From the sequence record PP925839.1: a stretch of 64,000 nucleotides of DNA; one strand, written 5' to 3'. Below the pieces are notes generated by a model. The model did not search any database. It saw nothing but the letters and a program-made list of their open reading frames with translations, and was not told where the DNA came from. Shown here one piece after another: positions 29,848 through 30,655 of this stretch. A program made the translations under genes and the position numbers. Positions within the stretch are counted from its first letter, which is position 1. Each line of letters starts with the position of its first letter. The DNA comes from Escherichia phage PinkRuby.

Positions 29848-30321
29848 TTATTTGAATGATTTGACGTACTGAATAGAGCCTTTGCTATTCACGAAAGCGA
29901 TTTTACCATTTTTGTTATACATGGTAGCAGTACGCTGATAACCATAAGTTTGTTTACCAGATTGATAACCAACTAATGCGAAATTATCTTCGCCCATTTT
30001 ATTCTGCTTAGCGCGAATGCGTTCATGGCCGTGTGCCATAAGAACCTTAGCATCACCAGTTGCAATGGATCTACGAGTTTTTTCATCTTCAACTGTATTA
30101 ACAAAGTCGTCAAATGAATCAAATTTAGCATGAGATTTATTATACAGTTTTCCATCTACTGCATAATTATATCCCTGTACATCCATCTCAACTTCTGTAC
30201 CATCATCCAATACAGCAGTGATTTTTTGACCTTTTTTAAATTTCAAAAGATCAGTAAAAGATTCAGCAATAATTTGAGAATTAATAGCTGCTTCAGTAAT
30301 AAATTCTTGATATGTTTTCAT
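29848..30321 (-). CDS. Internal-protein-like head protein with capsid targeting sequence
   Basis: 157 aa; N-terminus MKTYQEFITEAA with LxE prohead-protease-type site; SD AGGAAA. Confidence 0.7.
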   Translation of the reverse strand: MKTYQEFITEAAINSQIIAESFTDLLKFKKGQKITAVLDDGTEVEMDVQGYNYAVDGKLYNKSHAKFDSFDDFVNTVEDEKTRRSIATGDAKVLMAHGHERIRAKQNKMGEDNFALVGYQSGKQTYGYQRTATMYNKNGKIAFVNSKGSIQYVKSFK

Positions 30322-30337
30322 ATGTTTCCTTTAATTT

Positions 30338-30655
30338 TTATGCTTTAGGAAAATTTTTAGAATATGCATCGTAAAGTTTATTTCCAATGCGGCGGAAAAC
30401 TCTAGCTGCAAAACGATTTTCTGGATTTTTAATCATAATTTGCATCATATAAGTGCCCGCGTCTGAAAGAGCTTCACTATAATATCCATTAATTTCTTTT
30501 AAAGTTCTGCGTTTTCCGCCAGGACCATCGACAGTAATTTTCCATTTACCAGTAGAAGTACGACTAGGTGGCTCAACTTCTTCAATCCAAATATAACCGC
30601 CTTCTACACGTTGTCCTGCGGCAGATTCTGCAATAAATTCTTTATACGTTTTCAT
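30338..30655 (-). CDS. Internal-protein-like head protein with capsid targeting sequence
   Basis: 105 aa; N-terminus MKTYKEFIAESA; same RBS context as neighbour; basic. Confidence 0.7.
   Translation of the reverse strand: MKTYKEFIAESAAGQRVEGGYIWIEEVEPPSRTSTGKWKITVDGPGGKRRTLKEINGYYSEALSDAGTYMMQIMIKNPENRFAARVFRRIGNKLYDAYSKNFPKA

Follow-up and report, generated by a model that had tools for sequence, protein, structure and literature searches.

Two tandem genes of Escherichia phage PinkRuby almost certainly encode the internal head proteins Ip10 and Ip4, which, judging from their sequences, are very probably packed in the phage head and injected with the DNA. We analysed a 64,000-nt stretch of record PP925839.1 (hereafter the window, to which all coordinates refer), and its DNA is that of a T4-like phage (Tequatrovirus). 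A preliminary description had reported two tandem internal-protein-like genes beside denV, and both open reading frames (ORFs) were found exactly where it placed them, on the minus strand. The ip10 ORF (30338-30655) begins MKTYKEFIAESAAGQ and specifies a precursor of 105 amino acids (aa) with the leader MKTYKEFIAE; the ip4 (ipIV) ORF (29848-30321) begins MKTYQEFITEAAINS and specifies a 157-aa precursor with the leader MKTYQEFITE. All four characterised internal proteins (Ips) inhibit type IV enzymes, and by analogy the likeliest role of Ip10 and Ip4 would be that of injected inhibitors of a modification-dependent nuclease. With modest confidence, we lean towards the complete account in which both are packaged, trimmed and injected nuclease inhibitors.

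Identification of the two proteins

An exact-sequence look-up of the 157-aa protein returned 'IpIV internal head protein' (T2), 'Internal head protein 4' and 'Ip4', and the protein is 100% identical to the T2, RB14 and PP01 ('ipIV') sequence. It matched the Pfam family DUF7412 (PF24183) at E=5.7e-96 and 319 bits (cut-off 27) over profile positions 1-157 of 158, and phrog_3155, 'internal virion protein', at E=6e-102. Among the predicted viral structures of BFVD, the sole neighbour of Ip4 was Q38388, 'Ip4 [Enterobacteria phage K3]', with 99% identity. The Ip4/IpIV entries of K3, T2, RB14, PP01 and ime09 represent the same protein, agreeing in length, in leader and in their locus after e, and with no difference at the protein level. 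A profile search of 1.84 billion representative proteins with Ip4 recovered eight proteins at E <= 0.001 and no cellular homologues.

The 105-aa protein shares a 90% identity cluster with 'Ip10 [Enterobacteria phage Pol]' and was 94% identical to Ip10 of phage Pol (CAA84455.1) in the family alignment. Its identity to the PP01 product annotated 'ip10: Ip10 internal head protein' was 97%, and to an 'internal head protein' of Escherichia phage Ge15 it was 100%; the match to phrog_3966 had E=2.4e-33. The leader is shared with the known Ip10 proteins (Pol, PP01, SP18 and VR25; phrog_3966), and PP01 also shares the tandem arrangement with ip4. Differences from known Ip10 amount to a few substitutions (K5, E26, S63 and A105), and the deposited Pol Ip10 is 99 aa long with a different C-terminal tail. 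More distant homologues, from Enterobacter phages, were ~52-54% identical to the 105-aa protein. The structure model of Ip10 was unreliable, with a predicted local distance difference test (pLDDT) score of 48.7. A match of Ip10 to CsgH was rejected, as it reached 14 bits in Pfam against a cut-off of 27.

The numbered Ip names reportedly trace to Repoila et al. 1994. The same work is credited in PMC12373910 for 'at least 10' Ips. Both genes are already known, being named and annotated, and a functional hypothesis for them has been published as well. The novelty that the preliminary description had implied was therefore not borne out, and as the result of a genome scan the present finding is a rediscovery.

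Leader peptides and shared start context

Experiments with T4 have defined what a leader of this kind does. Ten N-terminal residues of IPIII suffice for packaging, also of foreign proteins in T4; positions 4 and 7 are important in targeting, positions 8 and 10 in processing, and the gp21 prohead protease cleaves after L/I-x-E (PMC9026906). The leaders of Ip10 and Ip4 both retain Y4, F7, I8 and E10. The first ten codons of ip10 (30626-30655, minus strand) end in I-A-E, with a predicted gp21 cut at E10|S11, and those of ip4 (30292-30321, minus strand) end in I-T-E, with a predicted cut at E10|A11. Measured against the PMC9026906 residues, the earlier proposal that each protein starts with a capsid targeting sequence ending in a protease site was upheld.

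A loose leader motif, MK[TS][YF]..F[ILV].E, occurred four times in the six-frame translation of the window, every time at the start of an ORF, compared with a mean of 0.0 in 200 shuffles. Both start codons also lie within an identical 21-mer, TTAAAGGAAACATATGAAAAC, of which the window holds exactly two copies: that of ip10 at 30648-30668, which overlaps the denV stop codon, and that of ip4 at 30314-30334 (both minus strand), each comprising the ribosome-binding and start context. The 21-mer was found in none of 100 shuffles of the window, even when two mismatches were allowed. As neither the motif nor the 21-mer appeared in shuffled DNA, the leader and start feature is real and not due to chance. 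The ribosome-binding context is also identical at T4 ipII and ipIII, both of which are preceded by TTAAAGGAAACATATG; the common context claimed for the two genes thus holds and extends to T4.

Conservation of the leader was examined in the two families. In an alignment of 14 Ip4 sequences (61-99% identity), M1, K2, F7, E10 and E20 were invariant, position 4 was Y or F, and position 8 was I, L or M; in the Ip10 alignment, F7 and E10 were invariant. Distant Ip4 homologues (<40% identity) begin MNFEQFLNES and MNFKDFLNES, and the protein of Serratia phage SP1 begins MKQFTEFMNE. The leader has therefore been kept as protein and not only as DNA, since it persists despite divergence of the DNA; this speaks against its being just the scar of a recombination. 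In Ip4, the invariant E20 closes another conserved [ILM]-x-E motif. This residue may mark a second cleavage site, in which case the propeptide would have 20 residues, much like that of T4 IpI with 19.

The predicted mature Ip10 has 95 aa, an isoelectric point (pI) of 9.7, 16 Lys+Arg residues and a mass of ~10.7 kDa. The predicted mature Ip4 has 147 aa (137 aa if also cut after E20), a pI of 9.1, 22 Lys+Arg residues and a mass of ~16.5 kDa. Both mature proteins are basic, as are IpII and IpIII. We regard packaging and processing of Ip10 and Ip4 as highly probable.

Comparison with characterised internal proteins

It had been suggested from the sequence that the mature parts do not resemble T4 IPII or IPIII, and neither BLASTP of the mature portions nor hhalign gave anything significant beyond the leader. 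In the BLASTP comparisons, against a six-sequence database, no E value was below 0.026, and by this measure neither protein is an orthologue of IpII or IpIII. hhalign aligned Ip4 with IpII confidently over the leader only, and its match to IpIII had 64% probability with low per-column confidence. Homology of Ip4 to IpII, for which tblastn (E=6e-5) and hhalign (88%) had made a candidate case, was rejected because the confidence was confined to the leader and leaderless BLASTP was not significant. Ip10 and Ip4 nevertheless resemble T4 IpII and IpIII in 8-9 of the 10 leader residues, in the same e-vs.8 locus, in their similar size and in their basic character; they differ in their unrelated mature domains and in a gene order that is reversed relative to denV.

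T4 IpI (IPI*), which inhibits GmrSD of E. coli CT596, is likewise a small leader-bearing protein that is cut at I-T-E and injected with the DNA. Its locus, however, adjoins 57B, its leader has 19 residues, and it is nothing like Ip10 past the first residues; IPI* was absent from the fold matches of the Ip4 and Ip10 models. Bas37_0260 of phage Bas37 (KarlGJung), an McrBC inhibitor, has a canonical leader (MKTYQEFIAE) and is also a small accessory protein of an ip locus, but it is encoded at the ipI locus and has an unrelated mature part, and the window has no copy of it. A search of PDB sequences revealed no relative of either protein among solved structures; the hits were spurious or below threshold, namely a designed protein at E=6e-4, in which no stretch qualified, and, at E 0.1-0.3, filamin and CsgH. 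Neither Ip4 nor Ip10 showed an enzyme-like fold or domain among the Pfam, PDB and fold matches.

Locus and gene order

Every gene of the ip region lies on the minus strand, and the order of transcription is nudE, e, denV, ip10, ip4 and a vs.8-like gene. The region opens with nudE (31672-32127). Gene e, for lysozyme (31141-31635; Pfam Phage_lysozyme; 97% aa identity to T4 e), forms the upstream border of the variable locus. denV, for endonuclease V (30665-31081; Pfam Pyr_excise, E=2e-13; phrog_1183, E=1.5e-62), lies immediately upstream of ip10 in the same direction; ip10 starts 9 nt past the denV ORF, and 16 nt separate ip10 from ip4. The vs.8-like gene (29155-29742; 87% aa identity to T4 vs.8; phrog_1488) forms the downstream border. 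Its product gave weak P-loop and terminase-N matches (AAA_14, AAA_30 and Terminase_6N, E 0.008-0.04) and matched phrog_2, terminase large subunit, at E=3e-6; a homologue is labelled 'putative large terminase subunit' in one record. From these matches, the product may be a small P-loop NTPase bordering the ip locus.

The e-to-vs.8 interval is a classic variable cargo locus, and ip10 and ip4 occupy its e/denV-to-vs.8 part, a variable ip locus of T-even genomes. When 1.4 kb around ip10 and ip4 was compared, 682 phage records matched, nearly all of them Tequatrovirus, with Ge15 the best at 97% identity. T4 has the order e - ipIII - ipII - denV - vs.8, compared with e - denV - ip10 - ip4 - vs.8 in the window. 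PP01, annotated e - ip10 - ipIV - vs.8, has the same ip10-ipIV tandem; in PP01, as in T2, where ip4 follows e, denV is absent from this position, whereas in the window it stands between e and the ip genes. Bas37 has e - denV - vs.8 with no ip gene between, and carries neither ip4 nor ip10. Bas41 (FriedrichZschokke) has the order denV - ip10 - ip4.

Outside Tequatrovirus, ip4 directly follows the lysozyme gene in a Gelderlandvirus phage. In Klebsiella phage PKO111 (Jiaodavirus), a gene at the lysozyme position is followed directly by ip4 and then by a gene for an 'ipII protein'. The PKO111 gene directly upstream of the Ip4 homologue (L006 2506-3000) is annotated as a 'sulfurtransferase', and its product was 65% identical to the window lysozyme e over 162 aa; on this similarity, it is probably a misannotated endolysin.

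Promoters and recombination joints

Comparison of the DNA with T4 revealed islands of 21-45 nt at the ip10 and ip4 starts that were 92-96% identical to the T4 ipII and ipIII starts, with unrelated gene bodies. The denV allele is divergent (78% aa identity to T4 denV, versus 97% for e). Its 3' end (30665-30690, about the six last codons, ...GKNIYI*) resembles the sequence preceding ipII in T4, where denV itself ends ...GKAIYA*. Together, the end of denV and the start of ip10 form 57 nt that are 95% identical to T4 non-coding DNA upstream of ipII plus the ipII start. As the end of denV matches T4 sequence upstream of ipII, the denV C-terminus is a recombination joint with an ip cassette.

The intergenic DNA between e and denV (31082-31140, minus strand) contains a motif resembling T4 early promoters, GTTTAC...TAGTAT, which overlaps a strong stem-loop and may serve as a promoter. 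The predicted RNA fold had -21.6 kcal/mol (z = -4.4), and the stem-loop pairs with the denV Shine-Dalgarno sequence. It was the sole promoter-like cassette found between e and vs.8. The cassette (GTTTAC...TGTGATAGTATATTCACAG) follows e in T4 too, and T4 has related copies before ipIII, ipII and denV. Mobile promoter/stem-loop cassettes of similar appearance have been described in T4-type phages (PMC2839356 and PMC4122927).

Two perfect T4 late-promoter motifs (TATAAATA) lie just upstream of e (31649-31669, minus strand), and these are the only ones able to yield late transcripts through e-denV-ip10-ip4. We looked for a terminator-like site on the minus strand from e to vs.8 and found none. As late motifs precede e and no terminator intervenes, late transcripts could cover ip10 and ip4 by read-through. 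A late promoter belonging to ip10 or ip4 itself was considered and rejected, since only variants of TATAAATA with one mismatch were present, within coding sequence.

Occurrence and conservation of Ip4

Ip4 was found in 470 phage records, IpIII in 261, IpII in 198 and Ip10 in 189, so that Ip4 is the commonest of the four Ips compared at this locus, which we report as a new point. Sequenced T4-like phages carry it more often than IpII or IpIII, and its carriers include phages of Escherichia, Klebsiella, Salmonella and Serratia. Between Tequatrovirus and Jiaodavirus or Gelderlandvirus, Ip4 was 70-71% identical and lysozyme 65-67%.

Proposed function and alternative explanations

Each of T4 Ip1, Ip2 and Ip3 blocks its own type IV restriction enzyme of the GmrSD family, with no cross-protection, and the authors of that study propose GmrSD variants as the targets of all proteins from both Ip loci (PMC12373910). 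The leader-bearing Bas37_0260 inhibits McrBC (bioRxiv 10.1101/2025.11.20.689424), and leaderless IPIII works in the host cytoplasm (bioRxiv 10.1101/2022.04.14.488369). Homology of Ip10 and Ip4 to Ip1, Ip2, Ip3 or Bas37_0260 was not found beyond the leader, nor is it expected, because these characterised inhibitors are themselves mutually unrelated (PMC12373910). The description of both proteins as candidate injected anti-defence effectors agrees by analogy with the characterised Ips (PMC12373910; bioRxiv 10.1101/2025.11.20.689424), as far as can be judged from sequence. That the target is specifically a type IV restriction enzyme is, by the same analogy, an evenly balanced proposition.

We propose that ip10 and ip4 would be transcribed together with denV from the cassette that follows e and, later in infection, on transcripts reading through from the pair of late promoters before e. 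Translation would begin at the AAGGA ribosome-binding site that is present before both genes. If the proteins behave as T4 IPIII did in the experiments above, the 10-residue leader would steer the precursors into the prohead scaffolding core, where gp21 would cleave after Glu10 and, in Ip4, possibly after the invariant Glu20 too. The basic mature proteins, of ~10.7 and 16.5 kDa, would remain among the packaged DNA and enter the host along with it. There, by analogy, each may bind and block one host nuclease that attacks modified T-even DNA in a stoichiometric inhibition, the nuclease most likely being of type IV (a GmrSD-family variant, McrBC or similar). DNA mimicry of the acidic Ocr type seems unlikely because Ip4 and Ip10 are basic. 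Internal proteins reach the cell ahead of any phage gene expression and would therefore provide a first-line counter-defence. Naming the targets of Ip4 and Ip10 would help in predicting the hosts of T4-like phages used in therapy and could bring additional variants of restriction systems to light.

Several points weigh against this account. The mature parts of Ip10 and Ip4 had no significant similarity to T4 IpI, IpII or IpIII, to Bas37_0260 or to each other; as they are unlike any characterised Ip, the function assigned to them rests on context and analogy. Virion proteomics, data on processing and phenotypes of Ip4 or Ip10 were looked for in the searchable literature and not found. Ip4 is as conserved across genera as lysozyme, a further new point, and this fits poorly with a fast arms-race inhibitor. 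T2 is restricted by the GmrSD enzymes of ECOR21 and ECOR17 (PMC12373910), and as T2 carries an identical Ip4, those two variants are probably not its target. The argument from T2 is not a strong one, as even wild-type T4 required additional Ip2 when GmrSD of ECOR21 was over-expressed (PMC12373910).

Packaged and injected proteins could instead act on something other than type IV restriction, namely another class of defence or a conserved host factor; candidates are abortive infection, nuclease-helicase systems, toxin-antitoxin systems and a host factor used in take-over. Such a target would suit mature domains unrelated to those of Ip1-3 and Bas37_0260 and the restriction of Ip4-bearing T2 by two GmrSD variants. 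The lysozyme-level conservation of Ip4 over four host genera also suggests a conserved target and not a hypervariable nuclease, and the T4 head protein Alt, which is injected as well, acts as an ADP-ribosyltransferase instead of inhibiting restriction (PMC9026906). As all four leader-bearing proteins of known target inhibit type IV enzymes, however, and Ip4 and Ip10 lack an enzyme-like fold or domain among the matches described above, we consider a target outside type IV restriction unlikely. Ip4 varies in presence and not unusually in sequence, which would itself suit a conserved target. Since Ip4 is the commonest Ip compared here, has diverged no faster than lysozyme and has leader-bearing homologues below 40% identity, we also entertain, as a tentative and somewhat unlikely reading, that it is not a narrow, fast-evolving inhibitor but an ancient injected protein, passed on mostly by vertical descent, whose target is conserved in Enterobacteriaceae, in a phage that appears to have a third internal-protein locus as well (the phrog_2280 pair below).

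A mainly structural role, in which basic, lysine-rich polypeptides neutralise charge or aid packaging or ejection and have no specific host target, would accord with the high pI and the Lys+Arg content of both mature proteins. It would also accord with the ~1000 internal protein molecules per T4 head, whose lysines touch DNA phosphates (PMC3012670), and with an Ip4 sequence conserved as in a housekeeping gene. We nevertheless judge it quite unlikely: the presence of the genes is highly variable, with both missing from T4 and vs.8 following denV directly in Bas37; IpII and IpIII, which are just as basic, proved to be specific inhibitors; and 64 invariant columns over a folded domain are not explained by charge neutralisation alone. 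It is more doubtful again, and in our view highly improbable, that the proteins are not packaged at all, with the common 5' end being a mobile junction left by recombination and the products ordinary cytoplasmic early proteins. The near-identity of short islands at the starts to T4 ipII and ipIII beside unrelated remainders, the recombination joint at the denV 3' end and the early type of the nearest promoter-like element could be read in this way. The leader is, however, held at the protein level in spite of DNA divergence, as in Serratia phage SP1 and the MNFEQFLNES homologue; ten such residues are enough to package foreign proteins in T4 (PMC9026906); and late promoters lie upstream with no terminator between.

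Other internal-protein loci and the tRNA cluster

The ipI position adjoining 57B is occupied in the window by a gene for an 85-aa protein (39481-39738, minus strand) that begins MKTFKEFATKTAITE|S, belongs to phrog_3499 and is named Ip5 in T6. Bas37_0260, the McrBC inhibitor at this locus in KarlGJung, is absent beside 57B in the window. Within the window, Ip5, Ip10 and Ip4 are thus present, and none of T4 Ip1-3 is. A tRNA cluster of 11 genes (37435-38455, minus strand) comprises Arg, His, Asn, Tyr, Met-anticodon CAT, Thr, Ser, Pro, Gly, Leu and Gln. The cluster has no segB homing endonuclease inside it; in T4, eight tRNAs are split by segB, with rnaC and rnaD in addition.

Two further tandem ORFs, both assigned to phrog_2280 ('unknown function'), lie on the minus strand between an e.8-like gene and the tRNA cluster, at the place where T4 carries rnaC and rnaD. 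The first (35518-36081; 187 aa) starts MKTYAEFLTE|A and the second (36207-36680; 157 aa) MKSYAQFLNE|A, so that each keeps Y4, F7, L8 and E10; outside the leader, BLASTP found no similarity between them. The second ORF has a perfect TATAAATA (36717-36724) 37 nt before its start. In all 40 records sampled from a total of 164, the first was labelled 'hypothetical protein', and the named cluster members of the second were all 'hypothetical' or 'uncharacterized'. These ORFs look like a candidate third internal-protein locus, annotated only as hypothetical, which is also a new point.

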